Of a stretch of DNA of 64,000 nt, positions 32,834 through 51,135 are shown one piece after another. Position 1 is the first letter of the stretch; each line of letters starts with the position of its first letter. The translations under genes were made by a program, and so were the position numbers. The notes beneath the pieces were generated by a model. The model did no database searches and was not told where the DNA came from. It saw only the letters and a list, made by a program, of their open reading frames with translations. The stretch comes from Planctomycetota bacterium (GTDB lineage Bacteria; Planctomycetota; UBA1135; UBA2386), in assembly GCA_046290465.1 (NCBI GenBank), contig JBKAGP010000001.1, positions 832,001-896,000 of the forward strand, read 5' to 3'.

Positions 32834-33862
32834 TCACTTGCCGGACTCCTGCGACTTCCGCTCTTCTTCGTTGCGCCAGCGCATCGTGTAGGCCGTCGTC
32901 TCCAGCGGCGAGATCGGCTGCTGCTCCAGGTCGGCGTCGATCTCGGCCCGCACCTGCTCGAACGGCACGTCGCGGCCGGGACGGTGCTCGAGGCAGTAGA
33001 CCACGAACCAGCGCTGCTCGCCGCCCCAGGTGGCCTCGAACGGCTCGCAGACCTCGCCGGCCTGCAGCTCGAACGCGTGGGTCGCGGCCGGGTGCCGGAA
33101 GCCCTCGCCGAAGGCCGGCAACAGGCCGCCGTCGCGACGCGACGGGTCCTCGGACCAGCGCAGCGCCAGCGTCGCGAAGTCGGCGCCGACCCGCACCTTG
33201 TCGACGACCTCCTGGGCGACCTTGCGGTCCTTGTGCACCAGGAACCGCACCTGCACGCGGTCCTCGCGCAGCGCCAGGTAGCGCAGCACGTAGCCCTGGT
33301 AGAGCCGCTGCGCCGTGCGCAGCCGCAGGGCCGCCTGCCAGTCCCCTTCGCGCATGCCGAACAGCCGCCAGACGTAGTCAACGAACGTCACGCCCTCGAG
33401 CTCGGCCTGCACCTGCCGGCGGAGTTCGCGTTCTTCCTCGGACGCCAGCTCCTCGACGCGCGCTTCGCTGACCCGGATGCCGTACTGCTCGGCATGGCGC
33501 GCCACCAGCACGTCGAACACCAGCAGGTCGACCGCCGACAGCGCCAGCTTCGGGTGCGCGCTCAGCAGCCGCGTGTAGGCGTGGCTCTGCCGCAGCACCA
33601 GCGAACCGACGCGCGCGACCTCGGCGTCGCCGGCAGCCGGATCCGGCAGCAGGATCTCGGGGCCGAGGCCCTCGGCGAAGCGCGGCGGCTGCGGTGCGGC
33701 GATGACCGGCGGCTGGTCGGGCAGCGGGTCACGGCCGCCGCCGCGCGTGCCGTCCCCGCCACCGAGCGGCGGCAGCCGTTGGGGCCCGCCGGCGCACGCG
33801 GCCAGCGACAGCACCGCCAGCAGCAGGCAGCGCCGGTGCCCTCGGCGAGCCGGCACCGGCAC
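32834..33862 (-). CDS. PpiC/parvulin-type peptidyl-prolyl isomerase lipoprotein (SurA/PrsA-like)
   Basis: LSLAAC lipobox; GADFATLALRWSEDPSRRDGGLL, AFELQAGEVCEPF. GTG start overlaps the upstream TAG; start uncertain. Confidence 0.85.
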   Translation of the reverse strand: MPVPARRGHRRCLLLAVLSLAACAGGPQRLPPLGGGDGTRGGGRDPLPDQPPVIAAPQPPRFAEGLGPEILLPDPAAGDAEVARVGSLVLRQSHAYTRLLSAHPKLALSAVDLLVFDVLVARHAEQYGIRVSEARVEELASEEERELRRQVQAELEGVTFVDYVWRLFGMREGDWQAALRLRTAQRLYQGYVLRYLALREDRVQVRFLVHKDRKVAQEVVDKVRVGADFATLALRWSEDPSRRDGGLLPAFGEGFRHPAATHAFELQAGEVCEPFEATWGGEQRWFVVYCLEHRPGRDVPFEQVRAEIDADLEQQPISPLETTAYTMRWRNEEERKSQESGK

Positions 33863-35367
33863 TAGTACGCCTTGAAGCTGCGCACCCACTTGGTGTTCTG
33901 GCAGAGGTAGCACTTCATGCGCACCATCTTGCCCTCGGGGCCGATCTCCGGGGTGGTGCCCGCGCCGTAGCACGAGATGCACTGCTGCGCGGTCGCGAAC
34001 TTGACCTTCAGCTGGCCGCCGTACTCGGCGTAGTAGGCCCGCAGCCAGCTGGCCTGCTCGGACTTGCTGGCGTCGCTCCACCAGCCCTCCTCGGTCTGCT
34101 CGCGCTGGCCGCCCTGCTGGGCCTGGCCGCGGCGGCGTTCCATCGCCTGCCGCAGCAGCTTGGCGAAGCGCTCGATGTTGCGGTCGTTGCCGCCACCGGC
34201 GTTGTCCTGCTTGTTGGCGTCCTGCTTGTCCTTGGCCTTGCCGGCGGCCGTGTCCTTGAGGATCTCCTTCTCGCCGAGCACCCACGAGCCGACGCCGTAG
34301 GCGAAGTACTCGGTGCGCTTGCCGATCGGGTACTCCTCGCGCTTCTCCCACATCGACTTGATCTCGGCCTCCTCGAGCTCGAGCGACTTGACCAGCCGTT
34401 CGACGATCTTGTCGGTCATCTCGTTCTCGGCGAAGTCGCGCGCCGCCTGCAGCGTCAGGCCGCCCTCGGAGATCGCCTTCTTGGCGACCAGCTGGATCGA
34501 CTTGCGCCACTGGTCAGCGACCTTCTGGGTCAGGTAGCGATCGCGGGCCTTGTCGAAGCGGTCCTTGGCGCGATCGAACTCGGCCTTCAGCTTGCTGTTC
34601 GGAAACTCCTTCTCGAACGTCGCGACCAGCTCGACGCCCTTCTGGAAGTCCTTCAGCTTGCCGCGGCTGCGGTAGGCCTGCAGCTGCTCGATCATGCCCA
34701 GCTCCTTGGCCGCGGCCTTGTAGCGCTTCAGCCGGTCGATCAGCTTGTCGAGCCGGGCCGGATCGGTGGCGTTGCCGAGGTCCTTGGCCTGGTCGAGGTG
34801 CTCCGAGGCGCGGTCGTAGTCGCGGAACTTGACCAGCTCCTCGGCCAGCAGCATGTGCTTGTTGGCGTCCTCACCGGGCGCGAACCTGGCGAGCGCGTCG
34901 GTGTAGAACTCCTCCTTGGTGTAGACCTGCGTGGCCGGCACCTCGATCGTGCGCACGCCCTTCAGGTTGCGGCGCGGGACCGGATAGGGCACGCCCTTGG
35001 CCTGCACGACCAGCGGATCGCCCGACGGGTCGGTGATCCGGCCGATCACGGTCTGGCGGGTGCCGTTGCTCAGGTAGACGACCTCGGTCGCGCGCACCAG
35101 GACCTCGTCCTGGGCGTCGCCGATCAGGTCGAACTCCTTCTTCCAGCGGGTCGCGCTGGCCGTGCTGAGGTGGTCCCAGCGCAGGTCGAGCATGCCGCCG
35201 TTGTCGAGGCGGCGCACGCGCAGGCCTTCGCCGTCGGCGTTCTCGACCGACGCCAACAGCACGCGGCCGTCGGCGAGCTGCACGGACTGTGCGGTCGCCT
35301 GCGGCAGCAGGAACGCGAACAGCGCCGCCGCGGCGGCGAGGACGGGGAGCAGACGTTGCATCGACAT
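33862..35367 (-). CDS. Secreted hypothetical protein with a C-terminal CxxC..CxxC Zn-finger-like motif
   Basis: Signal peptide ending ATAQ; VQLADGRVL; C-terminal CISCYGAG...CYLCQNT. Start between 35361 and 35370. Confidence 0.75.
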   Translation of the reverse strand: MSMQRLLPVLAAAAALFAFLLPQATAQSVQLADGRVLLASVENADGEGLRVRRLDNGGMLDLRWDHLSTASATRWKKEFDLIGDAQDEVLVRATEVVYLSNGTRQTVIGRITDPSGDPLVVQAKGVPYPVPRRNLKGVRTIEVPATQVYTKEEFYTDALARFAPGEDANKHMLLAEELVKFRDYDRASEHLDQAKDLGNATDPARLDKLIDRLKRYKAAAKELGMIEQLQAYRSRGKLKDFQKGVELVATFEKEFPNSKLKAEFDRAKDRFDKARDRYLTQKVADQWRKSIQLVAKKAISEGGLTLQAARDFAENEMTDKIVERLVKSLELEEAEIKSMWEKREEYPIGKRTEYFAYGVGSWVLGEKEILKDTAAGKAKDKQDANKQDNAGGGNDRNIERFAKLLRQAMERRRGQAQQGGQREQTEEGWWSDASKSEQASWLRAYYAEYGGQLKVKFATAQQCISCYGAGTTPEIGPEGKMVRMKCYLCQNTKWVRSFKAY

Positions 35368-35869: not shown

Positions 35870-37088
35870 TCCAGTCGTCCTTGGCGTGCAGCACGGGCAC
35901 GACGAACTCGACCGTGCGGCCGACGTTGACGACCGTGCCGGCCTGGTGTTCGAGGATCTTGGTGGCGCGCTGGCCGCGCTTGCAGCCGACCAGGCGGTCG
36001 CCGTCGAGCTCCGCGTAGCGGATCCACTCGGCACCGAGCTTGACGTAGCCGCCGTCCGGGTTGCCCGGGAACGACGTGCCGTCGTACAGGTAGATGCTGG
36101 TGTCCTCGGCGCCGAGGAAGCTCGCCAGCACGCCCTCGGGGCTCGCGTCGCGGTCCTGCGCCACCACCACGCGCACCAGGATGCCGTGCGGATGGATGTC
36201 GTCGGTCGGGTCGTCCTCGCTGGCAGGGCCGAGGTCGAACGCGAACTCGCCGCCGCTCTGCCGGTCGACCAGCCAGCCGCCGCGCGCGCTGTCCCAGATC
36301 GCCTGCGGGAACTGCAGGTTGCCGGCGGCACCCGACTGGTAGCCGTGCAACGGCCCGCGCTCGTCGCCCCACGACGTCGTGCGCTGCGACCACAGGCCGA
36401 ACTCGACGTGCAGCAGGTCCTGCAGGATCGGCTCGGTTAGCTCGAAGACGGTCAGGCCCGGCAGCTCGTCGCCGCCCGGCACGATCACGTCGAACGGATC
36501 GACGAAGCTGTCGACGCCGGCGGGGATCTGCTGGCCCGGCAGGAACCAGCCGGCGCGCAGTTCGAGCAGCGCGTCGTCGTCGCCCTCCTGGCGCCACGGC
36601 AGCATCAGCAGGTTGCCGATGCCGCGCAGCGGTTCGACCGCGGCCCGCTTCTGGACCTCGGCGACGATCTCCTCCGGCGTCAGCCCCGGGTCCTGCTCGA
36701 ACACGTCGGCGGCCAGCCGCTTGCCGACGATGGCGAGCTCGCGGGCCGGATCGAGGTGCACTGCGCCGCGCAGCACCTGCACCAGCGTCGCGCCCCGCTC
36801 GGGCGCGCGCGGCAGGCCGATCGGCAGCATCTGCACGACCAGGCGGTCCTCGACCTCGGTGCGGTCGCGGCCGGTCGAGCTGCCGCGCAGGCGTGAGAGT
36901 TCCTGACGCACGACCTGCTGGGCGCGCGCGCCGCGGTCGGCCAGCACCTGGCTGGTCTCGCCGTCCCGGAACATCGTCAGGCCACTGTCGACCAGCGACA
37001 CCAGCATCACCAGGAAGCCGCTCAGGATGCCCATCACGACCAGCAGTTCGATCAGGGTGAAGCCGTGCTGTTGCGTGCGTGCGTTCAT
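35862..37088 (-). CDS. Minor (pseudo)pilin, PilW/GspJ-like
   Basis: QHG|FTLIELLVVMGIL; ATGA overlap with the upstream gene. Confidence 0.85.
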   Translation of the reverse strand: MNARTQQHGFTLIELLVVMGILSGFLVMLVSLVDSGLTMFRDGETSQVLADRGARAQQVVRQELSRLRGSSTGRDRTEVEDRLVVQMLPIGLPRAPERGATLVQVLRGAVHLDPARELAIVGKRLAADVFEQDPGLTPEEIVAEVQKRAAVEPLRGIGNLLMLPWRQEGDDDALLELRAGWFLPGQQIPAGVDSFVDPFDVIVPGGDELPGLTVFELTEPILQDLLHVEFGLWSQRTTSWGDERGPLHGYQSGAAGNLQFPQAIWDSARGGWLVDRQSGGEFAFDLGPASEDDPTDDIHPHGILVRVVVAQDRDASPEGVLASFLGAEDTSIYLYDGTSFPGNPDGGYVKLGAEWIRYAELDGDRLVGCKRGQRATKILEHQAGTVVNVGRTVEFVVPVLHAKDDWNG

Positions 37089-40000
37089 CGCGCGGTCACC
37101 TGCTCGTCGAGGATGCGGCTCTGGCCTTCGTACTGCACGCGCACGTCCTCGACCCGCGCCGACGTCTTCCAGCCGTGCTGGGTGAACGCCTGCAGGTCGA
37201 GGCAGCCGGGCTGGTAGACCGTGTGGAAGCGGACCTCCAGGCGCGATGCCTGCCGGCCGATGCGGTGCGGCTTGCTGTCGGACGAACCGCCGGAGAACTC
37301 CCACAGCCCGGGGAACTCGTCGGGCACCGCCGTCCACGGCGCCAGGCTGTCGGTGCGCACCCGGCAGATCACGCGCACGCGCGGATCGATGGTCTCCTCG
37401 CGCCACTGCAGGTCGCGGTAGTAGACCGGCGCCTCGTTGGTCGTGAACTGGAAGTAGCTCAGCTCCGGATCGTCGCTGAAGTCCGCGTAGCGGTCCCAGT
37501 GACGGAACGGGAACTGGATCACCACCTCGCCGCTCGCGGCTCCCTGCGGCGCCGTGCCGTAGCGGCCGCGGAACAGGCCGCGCGCCGCCGACGTGCTGGT
37601 GTCGACGGTGCCGTCCGGATTCGGCGGATACCAGTTGGGCATCTCGAGCGTGTTCGCGTTGCGCCGCGACCAGCTGTAGTGCAGCAGTTCCTGGCCCATC
37701 AGCAGCGTGCCCGCGAGCGGCAGCGGCCCGATGTCCTGCACCGTCAGCACCGACTCGTTGCCGCCGACGCCGCCGGCCAGGATCGCCGCCGGCCGGTGCG
37801 ACAGGAACTTGACCCGCGCGCCGCGGTCGTGGCCGCGCGCCTCGGTGTTCAACAGGCCGCGACCGTTGTTCGCGATCGTGAACACGCCGTTGGCGCGCGC
37901 CGAGTACGCCATCACCTCGTCGTCGACCTGGATCAGGCCACCGGACTCCGGGAACCTGGCGCTGAGGTCGGCGCCGCCGGCCCACAGCGCCCCGAGCGAC
38001 GTGTTGGTGAAGAACGGGTTGGTCGTCAACTGCTGCGCGTTGGCGTCCATGATCTCGTCGAGCACCAGGTCGGGCGCGACGTGCGAGACCACCTCGACCT
38101 CGTCGACGACGCCCTGCATCTGCTGCTCGCCGTTGACGCCGCCGCCGATCGACGGGTTCGGACAGAAGGCCGCCGGCAGCTCGCCGCTCGGGAACTTGAC
38201 GATCCGGTCGTACTGGCGCGGATCCTGGATCTGGGTGTTCTGCGGCGGGCCGATGTACTGGTTGCGCACCTCGTCGCGGAACGCGATCAGCTGGAACGGC
38301 TTGGGCCCGAACAGCTCGGGCGGCGTGCGGTCCTGCTGCAGGTTGTCCGAGCCGAACCGGCGCGCCCCCCACGTGCAGGTGTGCCACTCGACCGCCGGCC
38401 GCGACGTGCCGCTCGCGACCGAGCCCTGCACCAGAGCGACGCGGTCGTGGCGTCCGACCCGGCCGGTGTAGGCGCCGTAGTTGCCCCACAGCAGCTGCAC
38501 CCGCTGGCACTGCGTCACCTGCGCGTTGTTCTGCGGGTGCGACGACGTGCCGGTGAACGGATCGCCGCGGAACGCCAGCCGGCGACGCGCCCAGTGGATC
38601 TGCGGGAACGTGCTCTCGAGCTGCGGCGTGTAGCCGATGAAGTTGGCCGACGCGGTGACCGTGCCCCACGGCGGCGTGGTCGGCACCGTCGGGGCGTCGG
38701 GGCCGAGCTGGCCGATGCCGACCCGGGTGCGCGTCACGGTCCGGGTCAGCTCCTGGAACAGGCTCTGCCAGGCGCTGCGGTTGCCGCGCACCAGGAAGCG
38801 GTTGTCGGCGATCGCGTCGTAGCGCACCCACTCGAGGTCGGCGTCCTGGCCGGCCGGCAGCAGCTGCACCCACTCGCTGGTGTTGGTGACCGCCGGGTCC
38901 CAGATGACGTTGGCGTTCTGCACCGTGATCGACACCGGCACCACCCACAGGATGCGCGTCGGCAGGTCGTCCCAGGTGCCCTCGCCACCGGCGAGCTGCC
39001 AGTCGTTCGGGTAGTCGGTGATGAACTTGCGGGCCTGGGCGTTGTAGAGATCGTTGCTGATCCGGTTGTCCTCGCCCGGCAGCGTCTGCGCGCGCTGCAC
39101 GTTGACCAGCCGCGTGCCCTGCCGCGACGCGTAGCGGATCAGTTCGATGCCGCCGACCTCGGCCGGCGTGCCGCTGATCTGGCCGTTGGTGTTGTTCTCG
39201 AAGCCGATGCGCTCCTGCAGCAGCAGCGCGTAGCCGCCGCTGGTCGAGAACGCGCTGGCGATCTCGTCGGACGCGTTCGGCGGCGGCTGGTCGTCGCCGG
39301 TCGGCACCGGGTCGGCGAGCTCGAGGTCGCCGGTCCAGTTCTCGTCGATGCCAACGCCGACCGGGATCGGCGGGCCCTGCAGCGGCACCAGCGAGATCGG
39401 ATCGGGGTTGCTGACGAAGCCGCGCGCGACCGCGAACTGGCCGATCGCGTCGGCCAGCTGGGTCTTGCCGACCATCATCGGCGTGTCTTCGGTCAGCACC
39501 GCGCCGTAGCCGTACAGCTCGACCAGCGAACCGACCGGGTGCTCCGGGAACACGTCGAGGTTGAGGCCCTGGAACTGCGGGTCGTTGACATCGACCGTCG
39601 GTTCGCCGTTCTGGTCGACCGGGATGTTCGGGCGGTGCTCGCGACCGATCTGGCGCGCGCCGCGCCCGCCGAGCGAATCGCGCCACTCGCAGACGAACGT
39701 GTTGCCGCTGATCGACGAGTACTCGAACAGCTCGAGGCCGATGCGCAGCACGCCGACCTGCGGAAAGTTCTCGGTCGACTCGACGGTGATGCTGAGGAAC
39801 CGTTCGTTGCCGTTGGTGGCGTTGGGGTCCTGGCCGTAGCCGACCGAGTTGTTGGCCAGCGTCGGGTCGAACGCCGGGATCGGCGCCGACAGGTAGGTGC
39901 AGTAGTTGCGCTTGCCGCGCGTCATGCCATCGACGAACACCGACATGTCGCCGGGCCGGCCGGTCGGCGCGCTGACGTTGAGGTGCACCGGCGTGTTGGC

Positions 40001-42268
40001 CGGCAGGCCGAGTTCGGCGAGCGGCAGGTTGACCTGCACCGCGGTGCGCTCGACGCCGGCCGGCGAGTCGCTCGGGTTGGGGTCGATGCCGGCCTCGTCG
40101 ATCACTTCGACCACCAGGTTGCCGTCGCGAGAGAGCACTGCGAGCCGGTTGCGGTCCGGGTCGCCGTCACCGTGGTCGAACAGGATCCGGTTCTCGAGCG
40201 TCTGCGGCTCGAGCCAGAACGAGGTCGCGAACCGCCCCATGAAGCCGCCGTCCACCGAGAACGGGAACGAGATCTGGTCGTGGCGACGGTTGCCGCCGGT
40301 CTGCGGCTGGCCACCGGGCTCGGTCGGCCCGGTGTTGTTCATGATGTAGGGGCCTTCCTTCTGCACGTCGCGGCCGCGCCGGTTGGGACCGAACGAGAAC
40401 GACTCGAGGCCGACGATGCCCTGCGCACCGCGCCACTGGCCGCGTCGCGAGATCGACGTCGCCGGCTCGATGCCGGAGTCGGCCGGATCGTCGACCGCGT
40501 AGCGGGCTGCGCCGAGGCCCATGCTCGGGTAGGCGATCGGCACCAGATGCGGCAGGTAGCGCGAGGCCGGGTCGTTGCCGGTCGAGGTCGGCTGCAGGTG
40601 GCCGAGGTTGATCGGCGACGTCAGCCAGAACGGCGACCGACGATCGAGCACGAACGCGTCCTCGAACTCGATCTGCGTCTCCCAGCGGCGCTCCATCTGG
40701 AAGCCGGGCAGGATCGCGGCCTTGCCGGTGCGTTCGTGGCGGCCGACCACGCCCGGCGCGACCACGCTGCGCTTCTTGCTGGCGGCGGCGCGGTAGGTCA
40801 CCCACGGCCCCGACTTGAAGCAGAGCGGCGCGGTGCCCATCTCGAGCACGCTGTCGCGGCCGGTGCGCACGTTGCGGTACAGGTCGACCCACTTGTTGCG
40901 GCCCTGGTTGTTGCCCTCGGCCTGCAGCTTCGGCGCGAAGAAGCGCTCGACCAGGTCCTGCCAGCCGGTGAACGGGCCCCCGCCCGCCACGCCGGTCGCT
41001 TGGAAGCGCAGCATCACGATCTCGTCGGCCAGCTCGGCGGCGGCGCGCGGCGAGATGTTCGGCGGCGCGCTGCTGCGGCGCTGGTTGTCGGCCGGGATCT
41101 GCAGGCCGTCGCTGCGGCGCACGTGCGCGAACAGCGCGGTCAGCACCTCGCGCGGCGCGGTGTTGACGTTGACCGGTGCCGGCACCAGCGGCTCGACCAC
41201 CGTGTCGACGGCCGGGAAGCCCTTCTGCACCGGCATCAGCAGGTCGAGATGGAACACCGACGGCAGCTGCAGCTGGGCCCGGCCCGGCTGCTGGGTCGCC
41301 GCCCGCATCAGCACCCCGTACTCGGACTCACCGGTGGCGACGTTGCGGATCCGGACCGTGCTGCCGGCCCCGAGGTGCAGCGCCGACTTGACCGTCAGGC
41401 GCCGCGACATGCCGGCCTGCAGCTCGTTGAAGACGCGCTCGGGGCGCCCCCACGACGGCGCCGTCTCGGCCTGCGCGTCGACCGCGAACGCCCGCGCGAA
41501 CGCGTCCATCTCGGCGGCCGTGAACGCCCCCATCTCGGCCTTCTGGATCTCGAGCAGCTCGCCGACGCTCTTGTACGGCACCCGCTTGCCGTCGCGATCC
41601 GGCCCGAAGAACGGCCAGATCGCCGCCAGCACGCAGCGGTAGTCGAGCACCAGCGCCTGCTGGCGCACCCCGGCGGTGCCGTCGGCGAAGCCGTATTCCT
41701 GCAGCAGGCCGCGCTGCACGCCGAGCAGCGAGCTGCCGTCCTTGCTGTCGTAGCTGACGACCTCGTTGGCGAGCCACAGGTAGCCCTGTTCGGGCAGCTT
41801 CGACGCGTCGTCGACGACCATCGTGGTCGCGTCGGGTTCGAAGTCCTCGCCCAGGCGCGTCGCGGTGCCGATCACGTTGGCGAGCAGCAGCGGGGACGCC
41901 GAGTCCAGCGACAGGAAGCGCTGCAGGTCGGTGACCTCGCCGCCGAGCAGCACGCGGCCGTCCTCGCGGATCGCGTCGAACGCCTCGGGCAGGTCGACGC
42001 CGGCCGGCCACTCGTCGAGGCCGTCGTAGTCGGGCGTCTCGTCGAACGCCGGGTGCGACATCGCGACGTCGGCCAGCAGCAGGTCGCGCACGCTCGCCGA
42101 GGCCTGCTCGGTGGCAGCCTGGTCGACGTCGCGCATGGCCGCGTCGGCGCCGACGCTCATCGACACCGCGAACGGCAGCGCCAGCAGCATCAGCAGGGTC
42201 AACGCGAACAGCACGGCGAGCAGGGCCAGGCCCCGTTCGTCCCGCTCCGGATGCACGTCACGGATCAT
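37085..42268 (-). CDS. Giant (1727 aa) PilX/GspK-like minor pilin with a LamG-like domain and repeated beta modules
   Basis: ERG|LALLAVLFALTLL lacks Glu5, as PilX/GspK do; VNVNTAPREVL is a GspK-like motif; ATSFWLEP...VFVDG and GVVDEV are LamG-like. Confidence 0.8.
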   Translation of the reverse strand: MIRDVHPERDERGLALLAVLFALTLLMLLALPFAVSMSVGADAAMRDVDQAATEQASASVRDLLLADVAMSHPAFDETPDYDGLDEWPAGVDLPEAFDAIREDGRVLLGGEVTDLQRFLSLDSASPLLLANVIGTATRLGEDFEPDATTMVVDDASKLPEQGYLWLANEVVSYDSKDGSSLLGVQRGLLQEYGFADGTAGVRQQALVLDYRCVLAAIWPFFGPDRDGKRVPYKSVGELLEIQKAEMGAFTAAEMDAFARAFAVDAQAETAPSWGRPERVFNELQAGMSRRLTVKSALHLGAGSTVRIRNVATGESEYGVLMRAATQQPGRAQLQLPSVFHLDLLMPVQKGFPAVDTVVEPLVPAPVNVNTAPREVLTALFAHVRRSDGLQIPADNQRRSSAPPNISPRAAAELADEIVMLRFQATGVAGGGPFTGWQDLVERFFAPKLQAEGNNQGRNKWVDLYRNVRTGRDSVLEMGTAPLCFKSGPWVTYRAAASKKRSVVAPGVVGRHERTGKAAILPGFQMERRWETQIEFEDAFVLDRRSPFWLTSPINLGHLQPTSTGNDPASRYLPHLVPIAYPSMGLGAARYAVDDPADSGIEPATSISRRGQWRGAQGIVGLESFSFGPNRRGRDVQKEGPYIMNNTGPTEPGGQPQTGGNRRHDQISFPFSVDGGFMGRFATSFWLEPQTLENRILFDHGDGDPDRNRLAVLSRDGNLVVEVIDEAGIDPNPSDSPAGVERTAVQVNLPLAELGLPANTPVHLNVSAPTGRPGDMSVFVDGMTRGKRNYCTYLSAPIPAFDPTLANNSVGYGQDPNATNGNERFLSITVESTENFPQVGVLRIGLELFEYSSISGNTFVCEWRDSLGGRGARQIGREHRPNIPVDQNGEPTVDVNDPQFQGLNLDVFPEHPVGSLVELYGYGAVLTEDTPMMVGKTQLADAIGQFAVARGFVSNPDPISLVPLQGPPIPVGVGIDENWTGDLELADPVPTGDDQPPPNASDEIASAFSTSGGYALLLQERIGFENNTNGQISGTPAEVGGIELIRYASRQGTRLVNVQRAQTLPGEDNRISNDLYNAQARKFITDYPNDWQLAGGEGTWDDLPTRILWVVPVSITVQNANVIWDPAVTNTSEWVQLLPAGQDADLEWVRYDAIADNRFLVRGNRSAWQSLFQELTRTVTRTRVGIGQLGPDAPTVPTTPPWGTVTASANFIGYTPQLESTFPQIHWARRRLAFRGDPFTGTSSHPQNNAQVTQCQRVQLLWGNYGAYTGRVGRHDRVALVQGSVASGTSRPAVEWHTCTWGARRFGSDNLQQDRTPPELFGPKPFQLIAFRDEVRNQYIGPPQNTQIQDPRQYDRIVKFPSGELPAAFCPNPSIGGGVNGEQQMQGVVDEVEVVSHVAPDLVLDEIMDANAQQLTTNPFFTNTSLGALWAGGADLSARFPESGGLIQVDDEVMAYSARANGVFTIANNGRGLLNTEARGHDRGARVKFLSHRPAAILAGGVGGNESVLTVQDIGPLPLAGTLLMGQELLHYSWSRRNANTLEMPNWYPPNPDGTVDTSTSAARGLFRGRYGTAPQGAASGEVVIQFPFRHWDRYADFSDDPELSYFQFTTNEAPVYYRDLQWREETIDPRVRVICRVRTDSLAPWTAVPDEFPGLWEFSGGSSDSKPHRIGRQASRLEVRFHTVYQPGCLDLQAFTQHGWKTSARVEDVRVQYEGQSRILDEQVTAR

Positions 42269-43882: not shown

Positions 43883-46596
43883 TAGCGGGCCTCCTTGCGG
43901 CGCTCGAGTCGGTAGTTGTCGAAGGCGACGTCGGTGTGCGCCCGCTTGTTGCCGGACGTGAACAGGATCGTCTTCAATGCCGTGTTGGTGCTGCGGGTCA
44001 GCAGCTTGAGCTGCTGGCTGTGCACCATCGCATCGTTGCAGTAGACCTGCAGGATCAGCTGCCGGGCGTCCTCGTCACCGTTGGGCACGACCCGCAGCTC
44101 GAGCTCCTGGGAGCCGCTGCGCATCAGGCTCTGCGGCAGCTTCTTGCGCACCGGCTCGGCGGCGTTGTTGCCGCCGGCGCCGTCGACGACGGTGACCATC
44201 GGCTGGCCCTGGTAGACGCCGACCCGCGCCGAGAAGTCGACGCCCTGGCGGCCGCGATGGATCTCGATGCCGATGCCGTTCCACGACTCGCTGGTGTCGG
44301 TGCCGGGCAGCACCTCCAGCTCGACGCTGGTGGCGAGGAAGTTCTTGCCGCGCGCGATCGCGTCGACCCGCTCGGCATAGACCTCGCCAGCTCCGCTCGT
44401 CGAGAACGTGCCATCGAAGACCAGGCGGCCGTCGCGGATCCTGGCGCCGAGCGCCTTGTCGGCATCCCAGCTCCACAGGTCCCCCGGCGCATCGCGGTCG
44501 AAGCTGTCGCCGAGCGCCTCCTTCTGCGCGTGCGTCTCGATCGCCGACAGCGTCGCGCCGGCCCACTTGCCGAGCTCGCTGTCGCGGCCGAGGTCGCGTT
44601 CGACGCGCTCGAGCGTGGTGACGGCGTCGTCGACGCGGTTGCGGCTGTAGGCGACCACCGCCAGCGCGCCCTTGGCGTAGCCGCGCGCGGCGTCGTTCTC
44701 GACCAGGTCGCGCGCAGCCTCGAACGCGGCGCGGGCGGCGCGGCGGTCGGCGGCCTGGAACGCGCGCAGGCCCTGCAGCTCGAGCAGTTCGAGCTCCGGC
44801 TGCGGCGACAGCGCCACGGCCCGGTCCTGGTAGCGTCGCGCGGCCAGCCAGGCGGCCGCCTGGTCGGTGCCGGCCGCGTTCTGACCGAGCTCGTCCTGCA
44901 CCGCCGACATCTCGGCGATCGCGTGCACGAAGTCGTCGCGCACCCGCAGGCACTGCGTCAGCGCCTGCTCGGCGTCGCCGTACTGGCCCATCAGGCGCAG
45001 CGTGCGGCCCTTCAGGTAGAGCGCGTAGGGATCGTTGGGCGAAGCCTCGAGGGCCCGGTCGCAGTAGGCCAGCGCGGCCTCGAACTGGCTGGTGCGCGAG
45101 AACAGCAGCCCGAGGCCGGTCCAGGCACGGTGGCGCAGCAGCGGGTCCTCGTCGGCGATCTGCGTCAGCAGCGTGTAGGCCTCCTGCCACGAACCGCCGT
45201 TGAGCAGGCAGGCGGCGCGGCCGAGCCGGGCGGCGGCCGCGTCGTCGCTGGTCGCGGCCTGCTCGAACATCGAACGGGCGGCCGCCATGTCACCGGACGC
45301 GTAGGCGACGCAGCCGCGCAGGTAGCTGCGACCCGGCTCGCTCGGCGCCAGCTGGCGCGCGGCGGCGAGGTCACCGACGGCGAGCTGGCAGCCGACGATC
45401 GTGCGCACGATCTCGGCGCGCGCGACCGGGTCCTGCACGCTGCCGAGCGTCTGCTGGGCGCGGCGCGCGGCGTTGAGCGCCGGGATCGTGCGACCGCGCT
45501 TGCGGTAGAACTCGGCCAGCGTCCCGTGCGTCCTCGCGTCGGTCGGCGCCTTCTCGGTCGCCGCCCGCAGGTGCTGCTCGGCCTCGATCCACAGGCCGAG
45601 GCGCGCCTTGATGACGCCGAGGCCCATCAGGCGGAACGCGTCGGCCTCGTTGTCGCCGGTCGTTCCCTCGAGCAGCTTGACCTCTTCGGCGAGGTTGCCC
45701 ATCGCCTGCAGCACGCGCTGCATGATCCGGCGGCCGTCGAGGTTCTGCCCCGACATCTGCAGGTAGGCCTCCGACTGCTTCAGCGCCTCGTCGTAGACCC
45801 ACGCCTCGACCTTGGCCTGCTCGAGCAGCCACTCGATCAGCTGCAGGCGTTCGCCCTGGCGGCTGGCGTCGTTGGTCGGTACCGCGCGCACGCGGCGGGT
45901 CACCTCGTTGCGCAGCGTGTTTGCCAGCTCGAAGCGCGCCACCGGCTGGTTGCCGTCGCCGAACGGTTGCGGGCTGCCGAGCTTGCGCTTCTGCAGGCTG
46001 AACACGCGGAAGCGGATCTTGACGCCGTCGAAGGTGCGCCGCTGCTCGAGCTCGAACGGGTCGATACCCATCGCCGAGTCGAGCACGCCGTAGAACGGCT
46101 TGTTCAGGCCCTGCACGTAGAGGCGGTCGTAGAGCTTGGCCGCCTGCTCCTCGGTCATCGGCCCGACGCCGGTGTCCTGTGCGTCCTGCTCGCCGTCGCC
46201 GACCTCCTCGCCGTCGCCGGCTTCGGCGCCGCCCCCACCGGTGCGGTCGATGGTGACGTCCTCGACCTGTGCGCCGTCGAGGCGCAGCAGCCACGAGTGG
46301 CGGAAGTCGGGCCCGAAGTCGAGCGGCATGCCGCACAGCGACAGCGGCGGACGCGGCGGGAACTCGAGTTCGCGCGGCGGCAGCGGCTGGGTCTCGCTCG
46401 GCTCGGTGAAGAAGTTGCGCCGCGCCATCTCGGCGGCGTCGCCGTCGACCAGCGACGCCTCCTGGAACGCGCTCGGCTCGACCTCGATCGGATCGGGGTT
46501 GTAGCTGACGCGCAGCGGCTGGACCTCGAAGTAGTCGGTCGAGCAGTAGGCCGCCAACAGCACGACCAGGATCAACAGCACCTGTTCCTTGCGCAT
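43882..46596 (-). CDS. TPR-repeat exported protein with a C-terminal beta domain
   Basis: N-terminal hydrophobic segment ending LAAYC; multiple TPRs (e.g. ALEASPNDPYALYLKGRTLRLMGQYGDAEQAL). Confidence 0.82.
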   Translation of the reverse strand: MRKEQVLLILVVLLAAYCSTDYFEVQPLRVSYNPDPIEVEPSAFQEASLVDGDAAEMARRNFFTEPSETQPLPPRELEFPPRPPLSLCGMPLDFGPDFRHSWLLRLDGAQVEDVTIDRTGGGGAEAGDGEEVGDGEQDAQDTGVGPMTEEQAAKLYDRLYVQGLNKPFYGVLDSAMGIDPFELEQRRTFDGVKIRFRVFSLQKRKLGSPQPFGDGNQPVARFELANTLRNEVTRRVRAVPTNDASRQGERLQLIEWLLEQAKVEAWVYDEALKQSEAYLQMSGQNLDGRRIMQRVLQAMGNLAEEVKLLEGTTGDNEADAFRLMGLGVIKARLGLWIEAEQHLRAATEKAPTDARTHGTLAEFYRKRGRTIPALNAARRAQQTLGSVQDPVARAEIVRTIVGCQLAVGDLAAARQLAPSEPGRSYLRGCVAYASGDMAAARSMFEQAATSDDAAAARLGRAACLLNGGSWQEAYTLLTQIADEDPLLRHRAWTGLGLLFSRTSQFEAALAYCDRALEASPNDPYALYLKGRTLRLMGQYGDAEQALTQCLRVRDDFVHAIAEMSAVQDELGQNAAGTDQAAAWLAARRYQDRAVALSPQPELELLELQGLRAFQAADRRAARAAFEAARDLVENDAARGYAKGALAVVAYSRNRVDDAVTTLERVERDLGRDSELGKWAGATLSAIETHAQKEALGDSFDRDAPGDLWSWDADKALGARIRDGRLVFDGTFSTSGAGEVYAERVDAIARGKNFLATSVELEVLPGTDTSESWNGIGIEIHRGRQGVDFSARVGVYQGQPMVTVVDGAGGNNAAEPVRKKLPQSLMRSGSQELELRVVPNGDEDARQLILQVYCNDAMVHSQQLKLLTRSTNTALKTILFTSGNKRAHTDVAFDNYRLERRKEAR

Positions 46597-46597
46597 G

Positions 46598-47401
46598 CTA
46601 CGCGTCCTCCTCTTGCTTCACGAACGCGATCCCCGACAGCGTCGCCTTGACCGTGATCGGCTCGCCCGGCCGCGCCGCCTCGGTCACCGTCAGGCGGTCG
46701 AGCACCAGCGTGCGGCCCGGCTTGCGGCACGACTCCAGGAAGTAGGCGAGCGTCGCCTCGTCGCACTGGAACTGCAGGTTGACGCGCTGCTGCTTGATCA
46801 GCTCGCTGATGTCGACGCCGCCGCGCCGGCGGCCCCGGCCGCGTCCGATCGTGCGCCGGCCGCGGTTGCTCTCGAGCTTGACGAACGCGATCGCGCTCAG
46901 CCCCTGGGCGTCCTCGTTCTCCTTGACGACGCGGTCGTGCGCGGCGAACAGCCGCTGCTGGGCCGCGTCGATCAGGTCGAGGCCGAACAGCGTGTCGCGG
47001 ATCTGGTCGATGCCGCTCGGCACCTCCCAGCTGATGTCGCTCTCCTCGACCAGCACGTCGCGGTCGCTCGCCGCGTTGACGATCTGCAGCCGCAGGTCGC
47101 GGCCGGTCTGGAACAGGTGGGTGTCGGCGGTGCCGGTCCACTGCCGGAACTTCGGCGCGACCTCGAAGGCCAGCTCCTTGGTCAGGCGCTCGCGCTCGGC
47201 GCCGAGCTTCTCGTTCTCATCCTGCGCGATCGACAGCGCCTCGCGGTTGTAGGCGTCGCGCAGGCGGTCCTGCTGGCGCGGGGTCGCGCCCGGCCCGGTC
47301 ACCGAGTCGATCACGGCGCTGCCGATCAGCCAGACGACCGCGCCGATCGCGCAGCCGACCAGCCACGGCTTGTTCTCCTGGGCGAATTCTCCGATGTCCA
47401 T
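46598..47401 (-). CDS. PilO/GspM-like alignment-complex protein
   Basis: N-terminal TM and coiled coil; C-terminal VNLQFQC....LAYFLE...LVLDRLTV ferredoxin-like pattern; directly follows pilMN. Confidence 0.65.
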   Translation of the reverse strand: MDIGEFAQENKPWLVGCAIGAVVWLIGSAVIDSVTGPGATPRQQDRLRDAYNREALSIAQDENEKLGAERERLTKELAFEVAPKFRQWTGTADTHLFQTGRDLRLQIVNAASDRDVLVEESDISWEVPSGIDQIRDTLFGLDLIDAAQQRLFAAHDRVVKENEDAQGLSAIAFVKLESNRGRRTIGRGRGRRRGGVDISELIKQQRVNLQFQCDEATLAYFLESCRKPGRTLVLDRLTVTEAARPGEPITVKATLSGIAFVKQEEDA

Positions 47402-49011
47402 CAGTTCGCCTCCAATTCGACGGTGAGCACGACGCGCTTGGCGCTGTCGGGGCTGGGACGTTCCTTCATGTCGGACACCAGCCGATCCTTGATCAGCGGA
47501 TCGGTGCGGAAGCTCTCGTAGAAGTTGACGATCTCGCGGCTCGGCTCGACGCCGTTGAGCTCCTTGGCCGCGAGCTCGACGGTCACGACCGGCAGCGCCT
47601 GGGCGCCGGCGCGGCCGCGCTTGTTGCCGACCTCGAACTTCTCGACCCACAGCTGCGGCTGCAGGTGCCGCGTGATCGCGCGCTGCACCCGCAGCACGCC
47701 GTGCAGCGGCAGCGCCCGCTGGCGCAGGTTCTGCACCAGCGCGCGGTCGATCTCGTTCTGCTCGATCAGCGCCGCGGCCTCTTCGTGGGTGCGGTTCTTG
47801 CCCGACACCATCTGCCGCATCTTGGTCTGGTAGCTGTTCTGCGCGGCCGCCGCCTCCTGGTTGTGGTTCACCTGCAGCGCGAACAGCGCCACGATCACCA
47901 CGCCGGCCAGGATGTTGAAGATCGTGCGCTGCTGGAAACGCTGCTTCTTGCGCACCGCCTCGGGCAGGATCTCGAGCGAATAGAGCGTGTCGTCGAGGCG
48001 GCCGACGGCGAGGCCGAGCGCGACCACGGCCTCGTGACGCATCTGCTCGAGCTGCTCGGCGTCGTCCGGCGGCAGCGCGCTCAGGTCGAGGTTGGCGAAC
48101 GGGTCGAACAGCTCGACCGGGCAGCGCAGGTTCTCGCGCAGCAGACCGCGCAGGCCGCGCAGGCGCGCGCCGCCGCCGCAGATCAGCACCTTGTCGAGGC
48201 GCAGGTCGCTGATCTTGGTCTGCGCCTTGCAGAACGACAGCGAACTGTTGATCGCCGCCGGGATCGACGTGGCCGCGCCGGCGGCGGCCATCGTGACCTT
48301 CTCGGCCTGGCCCGACTTGTAGTTGCCGCGACTGGCAGGATCGAGGTCGAGCAGGTCCTTCTTCAGCACCTCGGCCTTGCGCGCCGACACGTTGAAGTTG
48401 TTTGCGATCGCCTCGTCGAGCACCTTGGTGCCGCTGGTCAGGTTGCGCGCGAACAGCAGGTCGGTGCCGCGCACGATCGCCAGGTCGATGGTCTCGTGGC
48501 CGATGTTGACCAGCGCGACCACGGCGTCGGCGTCGACCGGCCCGCACTTCAGGTAGGCGTTGTAGAGCGCCGTGCAGTTGGGCACGAACGCCCCCACCGC
48601 GCCGCCACCGGCCACCACGTCGCCCTGCAGGCGTTCGAGCGCGTCGTCCTTGGCGAGCGCCAGCAGCACCGTGTCACTGCCCGACTCGTCGTCGATCGGC
48701 AGCAGGTTGTAGTCGGCCGAGAGCGCGCCGCCCGACTGTTGCGCCAGGTCCTGGATCTCCAGGTCCATCAGGTTGCGCAGCTGCCAGTCCGGGGTCGGCG
48801 GCACCTGGCTGTAGCGCAGCGTCATGTCGCGGCCGGCGAGGCCGCAGGTACTGTCCTTCAACGGGATGCCGGCTTCGGCCAGCGACATGTTGCCTTCGGC
48901 GCCCGGCAGGCCGGCGAAGCGCAGGACGCTGACGCCGTGCTTGCCGACCTGGGCGACGAGGACCTTGGCGCTGTGGCTGCCGATATCGACGGCGGTTGCT
49001 TTGCTTGCCAT
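47401..49011 (-). CDS. pilM: PilM-PilN fusion (GspL-like architecture)
   Basis: AVDIGSHSAKV, VNIGHETIDLAI and ICGGGARLRGL actin-like motifs; then a PilN-like LEILPE motif, TM and periplasmic domain. Confidence 0.85.
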   Translation of the reverse strand: MASKATAVDIGSHSAKVLVAQVGKHGVSVLRFAGLPGAEGNMSLAEAGIPLKDSTCGLAGRDMTLRYSQVPPTPDWQLRNLMDLEIQDLAQQSGGALSADYNLLPIDDESGSDTVLLALAKDDALERLQGDVVAGGGAVGAFVPNCTALYNAYLKCGPVDADAVVALVNIGHETIDLAIVRGTDLLFARNLTSGTKVLDEAIANNFNVSARKAEVLKKDLLDLDPASRGNYKSGQAEKVTMAAAGAATSIPAAINSSLSFCKAQTKISDLRLDKVLICGGGARLRGLRGLLRENLRCPVELFDPFANLDLSALPPDDAEQLEQMRHEAVVALGLAVGRLDDTLYSLEILPEAVRKKQRFQQRTIFNILAGVVIVALFALQVNHNQEAAAAQNSYQTKMRQMVSGKNRTHEEAAALIEQNEIDRALVQNLRQRALPLHGVLRVQRAITRHLQPQLWVEKFEVGNKRGRAGAQALPVVTVELAAKELNGVEPSREIVNFYESFRTDPLIKDRLVSDMKERPSPDSAKRVVLTVELEAN

Positions 49012-49077
49012 TCTGGTCTGTGGTGGTTGAGCTCTTGGTTGGGCCCGGCGGTTTGGTCCCCCGCCGGGGCTGCGGCG

Positions 49078-51135
49078 TCAGTCCTTGCCTTCGCCCGCCT
49101 CCGACGATCCGTCGCCGTCGTCCGCGGTCTCCGGCAGGTGCTTGCCGATGTAGTCCTGCACCATCTTCTGCAGGCCCGGGTGCGCGGCCGAACCGAACGC
49201 CTTGGCGAGCAGCGTCAGGCGCTCCCGCTGCGACTGGTAGGTGGTCCGGTCGAACGCCCGCAGGCGCTGTTGGGCCTTCTGCTGCAGCTCGCGCTGCGCC
49301 GCCAGGTCCTCGATGTTGGCCTCGCCGTACAGCTCGACCAGCTGGTCGACTCCCTCGGCCACCCGCTCGTAACCGCCGCGGGTGTCGAAGAAGCCGGCCT
49401 CCTCGAAGTCCTTCTGCAGCTGCCGCGCGGCGGTGGCCTGCTCGGCCAGGATCGCGGTGCGCAGCTGCTGGGCGTTGCCGAGCTCTTCGGAGTCCATCGG
49501 CCAGGTCGCGAACACCTCGGCGATCGTCGCCAGCGCCTCGCCGGGACGGCCCTCCCGGTGCGCCTGGCGCGCGTCGCGCACGAGGTTGCCGGCCTGCAGC
49601 CGCTCGCTGCGGAAGCCGACCAGCAGCCTGGCCTTGGCGGTCTCGACGCAGAGGCCGTAGACGCCGCCGCCGACCACGCCGCGCACCGGCGTCGCGGCCT
49701 CGAACTGCAGCATGCCGCGGGTGCCGAAGCTGCCGAACAGCACGCTCTGCGCCGAGAACTCCGAGGCTGCCGCGGTCGATGCCCAGCGGCCGTCCTCGCC
49801 GGCGGCCATCACGCCGCTGCCCGAGTCGGCCGGCAGCACGAACTTGAGCGCGCCGACGCCGCTCGCTTCGAGCTGGAAGCCGCCCTCGTCCTGGCTGCAG
49901 GCGAGCGTCCCGCCGACGTCGGACAGCACGCACTGGCCGGCCTCGTGCAGCTTCTTCAGCGCCGCCGGCACCTGGTCGGGCACCACCGCCAGCACCGTCG
50001 CCGGATGCTGCGGATCGGCCGAACGCACCGCCAGCGCCGTGCCGAAGCCGAGCGCGGTCTCCCCCGATCCGAGCTTGTGCTCGACGACGTTCTTGTCGCC
50101 GCCCTCGGTGATCGCGACGTCGTCGACGTTGGCCTCGGCGCCGTCGCTCGGCAGCACCGCGACGACCTCGACCTGCAGGCGATCGCAGCCGGGCGGCACC
50201 GTGACGACCGCCTCGACGCGCTCCCAGCCGTCGCGAACGGCGATCTCGGAGCCGCTGACGAAGCGGAACGGCAACTCGTCGTTGTCGGCGAACGCGACCG
50301 CGCGCACGCCGATCTGCGCGTCCTCGAGCGTGCGGCAGTGGGCGGCGACGGTCAGCGTGCGGCCGGCGAACACCTGCACCGGCTCGCCGAGCTGCAGGAT
50401 CGCGAAGTCGTCGTCGGACTTCGGCGCGGTGGTCTTGCCGCCGGCAGCCTCGCCATCGCCGGCCCCGCCGTCGCCGGCCCCGTCGTCGTTGCCGCGGTAG
50501 GCGGCGAAGCCGTTGCCGCCGGTGTGGGCGTCGCCGCTGGCACGGAAGCCGAGGCCGCCGGCCTTCAGGTTCCAGCCCTCGTCGGTCTCGCAGTCGGCCA
50601 GTGCCTGGTCGAGCCGGTTGCCGGGCACCGACAGCGGGTCGCGGCGCTTCTGCGCGGTCGCGCCGCCGGTCGCCTGCTGCTGCTCCTGCTGCATCCACCA
50701 CCAGTAGCCGCCGCCGCCGCCGAGCACGACCAGCAGGATCAGCAGCAGACCGATCGGGCTGCCGCGCTTCTGCAGGCGCGCCGCGTCGAGCTTGCGCAGC
50801 GAGAACTCCTCGCCGTCGCCGTCCGCCGCCGCCGCCTCGTCGCCCTCGCTGCGGAACTTGACGCGCAGCCGGCCGACGGTGACGACGTCACCAGGGGTCA
50901 GCACCATCTCGGTGACGCGCTTGCCGTCGAGGAACGTGCCGTTGGTGGAGCCGAGGTCCTTCAGCACGAGTCGGTCGCCTTCCGGCGCGATCTCGCAGTG
51001 GACGCCCGACGTCTTCTCATCGGCGAGGACGAGGTCGTTGCCCGGTTTGCGGCCGATGCGCAGCACGGCATCGCCCACGGGCAGAACTTCGCCAGCGCGA
51101 TCCCCATCGAGGATCTCGAGGACGTAGTTGGCCAT
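49078..51135 (-). CDS. FHA-domain membrane protein with a periplasmic carbohydrate-binding-like domain
   Basis: IGRKPGNDLVL...SGVHC...DLGSTNGTFLDG (FHA); TM IGLLLILLVVLG; DGWERVEAVVTVPP...VDDVAI (CBM-like). Confidence 0.85.
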   Translation of the reverse strand: MANYVLEILDGDRAGEVLPVGDAVLRIGRKPGNDLVLADEKTSGVHCEIAPEGDRLVLKDLGSTNGTFLDGKRVTEMVLTPGDVVTVGRLRVKFRSEGDEAAAADGDGEEFSLRKLDAARLQKRGSPIGLLLILLVVLGGGGGYWWWMQQEQQQATGGATAQKRRDPLSVPGNRLDQALADCETDEGWNLKAGGLGFRASGDAHTGGNGFAAYRGNDDGAGDGGAGDGEAAGGKTTAPKSDDDFAILQLGEPVQVFAGRTLTVAAHCRTLEDAQIGVRAVAFADNDELPFRFVSGSEIAVRDGWERVEAVVTVPPGCDRLQVEVVAVLPSDGAEANVDDVAITEGGDKNVVEHKLGSGETALGFGTALAVRSADPQHPATVLAVVPDQVPAALKKLHEAGQCVLSDVGGTLACSQDEGGFQLEASGVGALKFVLPADSGSGVMAAGEDGRWASTAAASEFSAQSVLFGSFGTRGMLQFEAATPVRGVVGGGVYGLCVETAKARLLVGFRSERLQAGNLVRDARQAHREGRPGEALATIAEVFATWPMDSEELGNAQQLRTAILAEQATAARQLQKDFEEAGFFDTRGGYERVAEGVDQLVELYGEANIEDLAAQRELQQKAQQRLRAFDRTTYQSQRERLTLLAKAFGSAAHPGLQKMVQDYIGKHLPETADDGDGSSEAGEGKD

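Follow-up and report, generated by a model that had tools for sequence, protein, structure and literature searches.

The locus analysed here raises the question of which kind of machine is encoded by an operon that joins PilM-type alignment proteins to T2SS-type pilins and a giant tip subunit, and which motor and pore would serve it. The window, i.e., the whole stretch of 64,000 nucleotides of planctomycete DNA that was analysed, contains the following features, given in gene order.

32834..51135, minus strand: operon, 11 genes from the FHA protein to the parvulin
49078..51135, minus strand: FHA protein, 685 aa, bitopic, Pfam FHA E 1e-17
47401..49011, minus strand: PilM-PilN fusion (PilMN), 536 aa, with an actin-like PilM domain, a TM segment at ~361-380 and a PilN-like periplasmic part
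46598..47401, minus strand: PilO/GspM-like protein, 267 aa (profile against PDB: M. xanthus PilO, E 3.1e-5)
43882..46596, minus strand: TPR protein, 904 aa, in the PilP/GspC position, TPR Pfams
43226..43882, minus strand: GspG-type major pilin G, 218 aa, TIGR01710
42265..43224, minus strand: GspH/FimU-like minor pilin H, 319 aa, with a LamG domain
37085..42268, minus strand: GspK/PilX-type tip pilin K, 1727 aa
35862..37088, minus strand: GspJ/PilW-like minor pilin J, 408 aa
35399..35869, minus strand: GspI/PilV-like minor pilin I, 156 aa
33862..35370, minus strand: zinc-ribbon exported protein, ~500 aa, with a signal peptide and a C-terminal CxxC...CxxC
32834..33865, minus strand: PrsA/SurA-like parvulin, ~343 aa, Pfam Rotamase E 4e-8 and NCBIfam
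31462..32802, minus strand: scpB (Pfam SMC_ScpB), conserved downstream neighbour

As described in the first-pass annotation, the eleven reading frames are co-oriented in this order, all on the minus strand, and most of them overlap or abut, with spacings of -8 to +28 nt from PilMN through the parvulin; the gap between the FHA gene and PilMN is 66 nt. Pfam assigned the labels FHA, PilM_2, TPR, N_methyl (G, H, J and I) and Rotamase, with a weak T2SSK match in the 1727-aa gene, and orthologue profiles built from 21 in-class loci were used to confirm the weaker labels. The earlier reading of the locus depended on this order being conserved in relatives, and it was: 35 of the 41 fetched loci, selected because a long contig carried K, have the order intact, among them loci from genomes at 25-30% identity, and the operon is therefore not a product of chance. 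The giant K was present in all 41 genomes, in 119/121 genomes of the class and in 116/201 of the phylum, so that the suggestion of a possibly lineage-specific system does not hold in a narrow sense. Since the operon is single-copy, near-universal in the class and retained in genomes of 2.2-2.5 Mb, and occurs in about half of the sampled phylum, it probably represents a core envelope machine of these bacteria.

Hydropathy and profiles indicated that the FHA protein consists of a cytoplasmic FHA domain, one TM helix (~125-145), a periplasmic CBM4/9-like beta-sandwich, and further beta and helical parts. Its phosphothreonine-binding motif is intact, with G28, R29, S43, H46, N65 and G66 conserved at 90% or above across 25 rows, and its profile matched an endoglucanase with a CBM (E 9e-5) as well as a phage central fibre (E 9e-8). 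The second gene had been called a PilM-PilN fusion, and indeed one chain matches both M. xanthus PilM (E 1.7e-39) and PilN (E 3.8e-7); the two parts are fused in 38/38 aligned rows, unlike the separate PilM and PilN of T4aP. That the fusion is a GspL was rejected, based on these profile matches and on the nucleotide-site motif GG(G/S/T)(A/S), which is kept in 29/41 PilMN orthologues. GspL was absent among the 30 matches listed for the PilMN profile, and the GspL-like gene of the genome is a separate, distant paralogue of PilMN, so that the operon lacks the GspL-type alignment protein of a T2SS. The best NCBIfam model for PilMN was NF045709 (Amuc_1101 family), at 126.5 bits against a cut-off of 650. 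The PilO-like protein gave a weak hhalign match to the T4aP PilO of the genome. The TPR protein is composed of an N-terminal anchor, a conserved R(D/N)xFxxP motif, which we take to resemble the PilP motif, a small beta domain, a TPR array, and a C-terminal beta-rich domain. Its Atlas look-alikes (0.83-0.84) were named GspC N-terminal, a lead for a PilP-like role, and the protein is likely the connector.

The class III signal motif G-FTLxE was found in 21/22 G, 15/17 H, 17/18 J and 18/18 I sequences. G scored 53.7 bits on TIGR01710 (cut-off 88.85) compared to 32.7 on the PilA model, and a C-terminal loop, SxGxDxxxGxxxD, is present in 14/22 G sequences. The LamG domain of H matched the profiles of neurexin LNS (E 3e-9) and AbnA domain 4 (E 5e-6), while residues 317-391 of J correspond to one copy of a beta repeat of K.

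K itself consists of a Glu5-less prepilin helix, a GspK-like N-terminal part, a ConA/LamG core with large insertions, repeats, and a short conserved tail. The proposal of a giant tip pilin of GspK/PilX type is supported by the absence of Glu5, which none of the 38 rows with a recognised motif contains, and by the GspK model NF037980, which matched 37/41 K orthologues (best E 1.7e-13), with K at 21 bits against a cut-off of 130. K matched the T2SS GspK of the genome weakly in hhalign, and a PDB sequence search with the K profile returned nothing significant. The repeat, of ~75 aa, occurs in about five copies and is shared with tail and baseplate proteins of phages (PHROG 2885/4406/1101/11439). 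An AF2 model of residues 560-1727 (pLDDT 83, pTM 0.83) was comparable to AbnA domain 4, with a VIA Z of 14.4, an rmsd of 3.0 and 169 aligned residues; Foldseek gave low-TM matches only, to phage tail parts and LNS proteins, and no new fold is shown. The tail at the extreme C-terminus is conserved in 41/41 rows and is unstructured in this model, which lacks the N-terminal part. Based on these comparisons the head of K is predicted to be lectin-like; a LamG fold does not by itself show glycan binding. Two other affiliations of K were unsupported: TIGR02600, of the Verru_Chthon A family, matched 5/41 N-terminal halves weakly (best E 2e-6), and the 1645-aa K-position pilin of genome G176 has an unrelated head.

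The zinc-ribbon protein is built from two small beta domains, the first SHD1-like, a TPR and helical body, and the zinc ribbon, in which the four cysteines are at least 90% conserved in 37 rows. Its AF2 model (pLDDT 90.5) matched SHD1 with Z 7.8 and TPR structures with Z up to 9.8; structure comparison gave no whole-chain match, and no new fold is shown. The parvulin carries a lipobox, LAAC, and several orthologues have one as well.

As had been noted from the sequence, no ATPase, platform protein or secretin is encoded in the window; the genome-wide search returned 7 secretin, 13 ATPase and 12 platform domain matches, the nearest 126 kb off. Of GspD, GspE and GspF, expected in a single locus for a T2SS, none is encoded within 126 kb of the operon. 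An assembly ATPase, a platform protein and a prepilin peptidase are present elsewhere in the genome, where T2SS, T4aP and Tad each have a separate set of genes, with gspD-E-F accompanying another pilin set. In two small genomes of 2.3-2.4 Mb, G061 and G062, the search recovered no ATPases other than T2SS GspE and those of a pilB1-pilT-pilB2 cluster followed directly by pilC, an elimination that, at 88-89% completeness, is not proof. Their T2SS is supplied with D, E, F, pilins, K and L of its own, and no stand-alone T4aP PilM or PilQ was found in either genome. The motor locus has no adjoining pilins in operon-bearing genomes (L166, L169, L172, L194-L197); in G176 and G143, both K-negative, G-(G)-H-I-J and a K-position pilin of 1645 or 1399 aa come immediately after this motor. 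A PilB2 orthologue was identified in 33/34 K-positive genomes, but also in 37/40 K-negative ones, and its co-occurrence with K therefore says little. Each of the three ATPases has intact Walker A, Asp and His boxes; PilT scores above the TIGR01420 cut-off and is encoded between pilB1 and pilB2 in most loci, while G317 lacks it in the motor locus. This gene context points to pilB1-pilT-pilB2-pilC as the likely motor, remote and dedicated. The first-pass annotation had suggested a borrowed motor; that it must be encoded elsewhere, like the pore, stands, whereas the evidence favors a dedicated cluster, and probably a dedicated pair of secretins, over the parts of the T2SS or T4aP.

On balance, we lean towards a reading in which a dedicated type IV filament machine draws its inner-membrane alignment complex and all of its pilins from the operon, with the remote cluster as its likely motor, twin TPR-secretins as its likely exit, and a giant lectin-like tip that is predicted to bind surface glycans or particles and to draw them back to the cell. 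This is in accordance with the initial description of a hybrid T4P/T2SS-like machine that combines PilM-type alignment proteins, T2SS-type pilins and a giant tip subunit. In such a machine all five pilins (G, H, I, J and K) would be processed by PilD, as suggested by their motifs and the pilD gene. Considering a published model (PMC13533445) and the conserved tail, Glu5-less K would sit on top of an initiation complex of K, J, I and H, completing its own pilin sheet with its C-terminal tail, and its head of ~1200 residues would replace a PilY1-type adhesin. Gene content and order suggest that polymerisation of G would be the task of PilB1 and PilB2 acting on PilC, with PilMN-PilO and the TPR connector holding them in place, and that PilT would retract the G filament. 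The parvulin may help to fold exported subunits, and the FHA protein may couple the machine to Ser/Thr phosphorylation.

Alternatively, the operon could form a second T2SS-like system, in which folded proteins or large molecules pass through a secretin, driven by a short periplasmic pseudopilus that acts as a piston, with K as the cargo-binding head. A major pilin that is GspG-like instead of PilA-like, the GspK-like K, the dispensability of PilT in at least one family and the absence of a PilY1-type gene from the eleven would suit a piston. We nevertheless consider it unlikely, given that the alignment protein is of PilM type and retains the nucleotide motif, that the genome has a complete separate T2SS, that PilT lies between two PilBs in most loci, and that LamG on H and K and the phage-fibre-like repeats suit an outward-facing adhesin.

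For the dedicated filament machine, the likely pore, judged from gene neighbourhoods, is the locus in which two TPR-secretins surround ExbB-ExbD-ExbD. Both secretins are retained in 5/5 small genomes, but sequences of their type occur in 192/201 phylum genomes. They lie within 45 kb of pilMN in 19/71 genomes and 7/24 families, compared to 0/27 for pilB2, and are co-oriented just upstream of the operon in G315, G197 and G319. The linked families fall on three separate deep branches of the PilMN tree, a quick version with several open forks. Linkage was seen in 0/13 genomes of the class, and the two loci are ~810 kb apart in the window genome. The linkage may also reflect inertia, because the conserved neighbourhood holds unrelated genes as well (UDG, HAD, asnB, scpB and rsmE). 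In family f18 a second PilMN-O-like set directly precedes secretin A, and the secretin may therefore serve another alignment complex. The candidate secretin matches the Amuc_1098 model over residues 192-713 (81 bits against a cut-off of 750); Akkermansia has a 907-aa TPR-secretin (PMC4960237), paired with the Amuc_1101 PilM protein.

The same filament and motor could instead exit through the short lipoprotein secretin encoded beside gspK, or through GspD, with the twin secretins forming a separate ExbBD-driven system. The short secretin is likewise kept in 5/5 small genomes, and the twin secretins are near-universal in the phylum and have their own PilMN-O-like genes in f18. However, the short secretin adjoins the T2SS gspK in G000, G061, G029 and G049, and operon linkage was seen for the twin secretins, which also have the Akkermansia parallel, with short-secretin linkage compared in the class only; this exit appears quite improbable. 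It is very improbable that the operon is a spare alignment and minor-pilin module plugged into an ordinary T4aP or T2SS of the genome: several bacteria swap minor-pilin sets on one motor and this genome holds many TFF parts in split loci, but the operon persists where no T4aP pilM, pilQ or pilT-pilB-pilC was found and brings a major pilin and alignment proteins of its own, and the T2SS is itself equipped with a full set of pilins.

Judged by its predicted parts, the dedicated machine would behave as a type IV filament, yet it does not qualify as a T2SS, a T4aP or the MUL2 system of Akkermansia (Amuc_1098-1102). Its pilins, including the major one, carry the class III signal peptides of the type IV filament superfamily, and an ATPase, a platform and a prepilin peptidase are available, although we infer which of them serve the operon. 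It resembles the T2SS pseudopilus in its GspG-like major pilin, in having one each of H, I and J, and in K, which lacks Glu5, has a GspK-like region and, like T2SS GspK, probably donates its C-terminal strand in cis (PMC13533445). It differs from T2SS in the size, LamG core and phage-like repeats of K, in the extra domains of H and J, in having PilM-PilN in place of GspL, and in a likely motor with two PilBs and PilT. G and K match the GspG and GspK models best, but below the cut-offs. With T4aP it shares PilM-, PilN- and PilO-type alignment parts, a multi-locus layout and, if correctly linked to the operon, a PilB/PilT/PilC motor, and it differs in the PilM/PilN fusion, the twin PilBs, and the extra FHA, TPR, zinc-ribbon and parvulin genes. 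PilP, PilQ and PilY1 had no Pfam or NCBIfam match among the eleven operon genes, and G, scoring higher on GspG, is not a PilA-type pilin. As in MUL2, the closest NCBIfam relative of PilMN is Amuc_1101 and the candidate secretin joins TPRs to a secretin domain in the way of Amuc_1098, but both score far below the cut-offs, so that PilMN falls outside the Amuc_1101 family proper. MUL2 comprises four genes and an archaeal-type pilin-like protein instead of G/H/K/J/I, and it lacks the arrangement of two secretins around ExbB-ExbD-ExbD. Its TPR-secretin is adjacent; the twin secretins are not adjacent to the operon in the window genome, but lie within 45 kb of pilMN in 19/71 genomes. The NCBIfam search gave no match to an Amuc_1102-like pilin or to Amuc_1099/1100. 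The phyla of Akkermansia and of the window genome are related, and a role in glycan capture has been proposed (PMC13174399). K homologues with large adhesin insertions are known from Caulobacter CpaL and from Thermus and Vibrio competence pili (PMC13533445). Similar to these and to the Verru_Chthon cassette (TIGR02600), an oversized pilin in the K position would replace a separate tip adhesin; however, no sequence relation to K was found beyond the pilin region, and no window protein matched the Verru_Chthon models (TIGR02600/02596). TFF systems are often multi-locus (PMC6668835), and the oddities of the present one, i.e., split loci, PilMN fusion and oversized K, each have precedents.

A broader reading, possible but doubtful, is that one ancient Planctomycetota machine is made up of the operon together with the twin-PilB motor and the twin-secretin/ExbB-ExbD-ExbD locus; in it, a retractile filament with a phage-fibre-like lectin head would capture polysaccharides or prey surfaces and reel them through a two-subunit secretin gated by proton-driven ExbBD, under Ser/Thr-phosphorylation control via the FHA protein. 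If true, it would represent a TonB-independent uptake of macromolecules and might account for the still unexplained selfish uptake seen in planctomycetes, which take up polysaccharides by an unknown route (PMC11131199). In Saltatorellota, PilB and PilT are among the type IV pilus genes noted, and what these genes contribute to the odd movement of the group is left open (10.1101/817700). No description of the operon was found in the open-access literature searched, although the supplements of that preprint (Fig. S5, Tables S2-S3) may list some of its genes. The system may be a machine, so far undescribed, that seizes large molecules and pulls them in, and a candidate motor, pore and tip make the questions of uptake and movement specific. 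K would extend the beta-strand licensing model to a 1727-residue pilin of lectin fold with phage-tail-like repeats.

Downstream of the operon, scpB starts 31 nt past the parvulin gene, adjoins it in most loci and is conserved there almost as faithfully as the parvulin; it is probably co-transcribed with the operon, and is unrelated to the machine and outside it. A tRNA-Leu called by ARAGORN within K (39528-39607) had no Rfam support and was discarded. Sigma-54 control via an FHA-GAF activator was likewise set aside, a crude motif scan having matched 2/18 upstream regions, that of the window not among them. Such an FHA-GAF activator sits upstream of the operon in other families.

The genome bearing the window (G000; 6.59 Mb, one contig) encodes all eleven genes that the first-pass annotation had described as co-oriented. 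They lie on the minus strand at window positions 32834-51135, neighbours mostly overlapping or abutting, and each is present in one copy in the genome. GC content is ~70% in the window, with composition unbroken at the operon, which is followed downstream by scpB and a tRNA-Glu gene and preceded by a divergent rsmE. Other features of the window are:

31462-32802, minus: scpB, extended N-terminally by a long stretch that is acidic and repetitive; scpA does not adjoin it
52096-54174 and 54436-56472, minus: two tandem, closely similar exported proteins of ~680-690 aa (one scanned, Pfam negative)
39528-39607, plus: ARAGORN tRNA-Leu call antisense within the giant pilin gene; Rfam finds none there and the call is probably false

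Profile searches agreed with the earlier labels for several components. The 536-aa protein is a true PilM-PilN fusion, as first annotated: positions 4-344 of its profile match M. xanthus PilM and positions 351-474 match PilN. Among curated families it scored highest for Akkermansia Amuc_1101, below the cut-off. The PilO-like assignment held, G scored as GspG-like, and LamG was detected in the GspH-like H. The FHA protein keeps its phosphothreonine-binding residues and has a CBM-like domain on the periplasmic side. The 904-aa TPR protein, with a conserved RDxFxxP motif, occupies the PilP/GspC position; comparison with GspC N-termini gave a weak Atlas lead and nothing stronger. The exported zinc-ribbon protein has a confident predicted fold of small beta domains, TPR helices and a Cys4 ribbon, for which structure comparison gave no match over the whole chain. 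Parvulin has a lipobox.

The GspK/PilX-like identity proposed for the 1727-aa pilin, K, was borne out by the GspK model, which matched 37/41 N-terminal halves of the orthologues, and Glu5 is absent from all 38 rows with a recognised motif (41 aligned). Residues 560-1727 are predicted as a single compact body (pLDDT 83, pTM 0.83), and structure comparison matched it best to ConA/LamG domains (Z 14.4, rmsd 3.0 A, 169 residues). The stretch over which they align extends across 770-980 residues, so that large insertions split the ConA/LamG core. K has about five copies, and J one, of a ~75-aa beta repeat for which PHROG families of phage baseplate, tail and virion proteins gave matches, the strongest at E 6e-16 for an orthologue. 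Tip assembly is reported to require that the K sheet be completed by a C-terminal strand, which PilY1 supplies in trans and GspK or CpaL in cis, sometimes across a large insertion (PMC13533445). Every K orthologue has a similar C-terminal tail of ~10 residues, unstructured in the model built without the N-terminal part. We infer that K may combine a K pilin and an adhesin in a single chain.

K was found in 41/41 genomes of the order, 119/121 of the class and 116/201 of the phylum, counts that include G000 and, for the phylum, weak matches; searches of some families gave no match (0/12, 0/11). Phylum-wide, the zinc-ribbon profile matched 115/201 genomes and PilMN 140/201. The gene order, on whose conservation the first-pass proposal depended, is complete in 35 of the 41 fetched loci (20/21 within the class, 15/20 outside). 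An FHA match was missing from one in-class locus; in one out-of-class locus there was no match for FHA, PilO, the zinc-ribbon protein or the parvulin; and four loci held K by itself; for one of these, in G319, the remaining operon lies elsewhere, in order and without K.

G000 has seven secretins and 13 ATPase matches in total, and its type IV filament (TFF) parts comprise:

Split T2SS: gspD-E-F; gspG-H-I-J; gspK; gspL-M
T4aP set: pilM-N-O-Q; pilT-B-C-pilin with pilD
Tad locus
L021:6103-16083: another complete TFF locus; its PilMN-like protein is divergent, its pilins resemble GspG, its secretin has a TPR tail and its ATPase gene is transcribed divergently
L018:7415-11980 and L024:6523-7689: pilB1-pilT-pilB2 triplet and orphan pilC, a single locus in many relatives, with a histidine kinase behind
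L025:9042-13524: short (495-aa) lipoprotein secretin adjoining T2SS gspK, an arrangement kept in three other genomes (G061, G029, G049)
L026:3134-15420 (G000:C1:1693134-1705420): twin TPR-secretins flanking a 960-aa TPR protein, a 372-aa protein and exbB-exbD-exbD

The short secretin sits beside gspK though the T2SS already has GspD. Several other families have a sulfatase-like gene inserted ahead of the second twin secretin. TFFs encoded at several loci have been noted, as have many unclassified 'generic' TFFs (PMC6668835). The first-pass annotation was right that the window contains no motor, but since the filament sets of G000 are split over loci, this is ordinary for the genome.

The motor was sought in five small class members keeping K. 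In G061 and G062 (88-89% complete), the sole ATPases found were GspE and pilB1-pilT-pilB2, with the pilC that stands alone in G000 directly 3' of the triplet; the only PilM-family matches were the operon fusion and GspL, and a search for PilQ found none. The other three genomes each have one extra TFF locus. No pilins lie beside the twin-PilB motor locus in the operon-bearing genomes examined. In K-negative G176 and G143, the motor is directly followed by G/H/I/J-type pilins and a K-position pilin; such pilins in K-negative families measure 1645 aa (L188:3069-8006) and 1399 aa (L199:5155-9354), the 1645-aa protein, of G176, having a head unrelated to window K. The content of G061 and G062 and the gene order of G176 and G143 argue that a twin-PilB motor spread across the phylum is paired with a giant-K cassette, and that in operon-bearing lineages the operon would be that cassette. 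PilB2 orthologues occur in 33/34 K-positive genomes and also in 37/40 K-negative ones, which, like the G317 motor locus without PilT, counts against over-reading this link.

For the pore, at least 19/71 genomes (7/24 families) have pilMN and a twin secretin on one contig no more than 45 kb apart, a lower bound given fragmented assemblies and based on listed coordinates, which include 150 of the 513 secretin matches; by the same measure pilB2 is linked in 0/27. The twin-secretin locus is just upstream of the operon and co-oriented in three genomes (G315, G197, G319) and divergent to it in two (G168, G300). In a quick PilMN tree, families with the linkage are spread over three deep branches, which suggests that the adjacency is old and since lost in the window's class, where linkage is 0/13. 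A parallel is found in Akkermansia, whose abundant 907-aa TPR-secretin (PMC4960237) adjoins the MUL2 locus (Amuc_1098-1102) with its PilM protein, a proposed mediator of glycan attachment (PMC13174399). Three points count against the link: secretins related to the twin type match 192/201 phylum genomes, unrelated genes share the neighbourhood, and in one family (f18) secretin A is immediately preceded by another PilMN-like gene. On balance, we lean towards the twin secretins being linked to the operon machine.

Taken from sequence, the machine would work in the manner of type IV filaments, combining pilins of T2SS type with alignment and motor parts of T4aP type and carrying its adhesin within the tip, in keeping with the hybrid first proposed. 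By membership tests, it appears to fall outside T2SS, T4aP, MUL2 and the Verru_Chthon cassette, and literature searches found no prior account of the operon. Three pilQ-like genes are reported as dispensable in culture in Planctopirus (PMC11958385), and selfish uptake by planctomycetes has been called unexplained (PMC11131199).

An FHA-GAF-sigma54 activator is found just upstream of the operon FHA gene in four families (f18, f30, f36, f49). In G000, such an activator is followed by a 1085-aa Ser/Thr kinase at L198:6251-11621 (G000:C1:68251-73621), and a crude motif count gave 63 Ser/Thr kinase-like proteins. G000, which may itself belong to the Saltatorellota/UBA1135 lineage, also encodes, 1 kb from the twin-secretin locus, a MamK-family actin (L026:16430-17521; above the NCBIfam cut-off) resembling the 'saltatorellin' described from that lineage (10.1101/817700).
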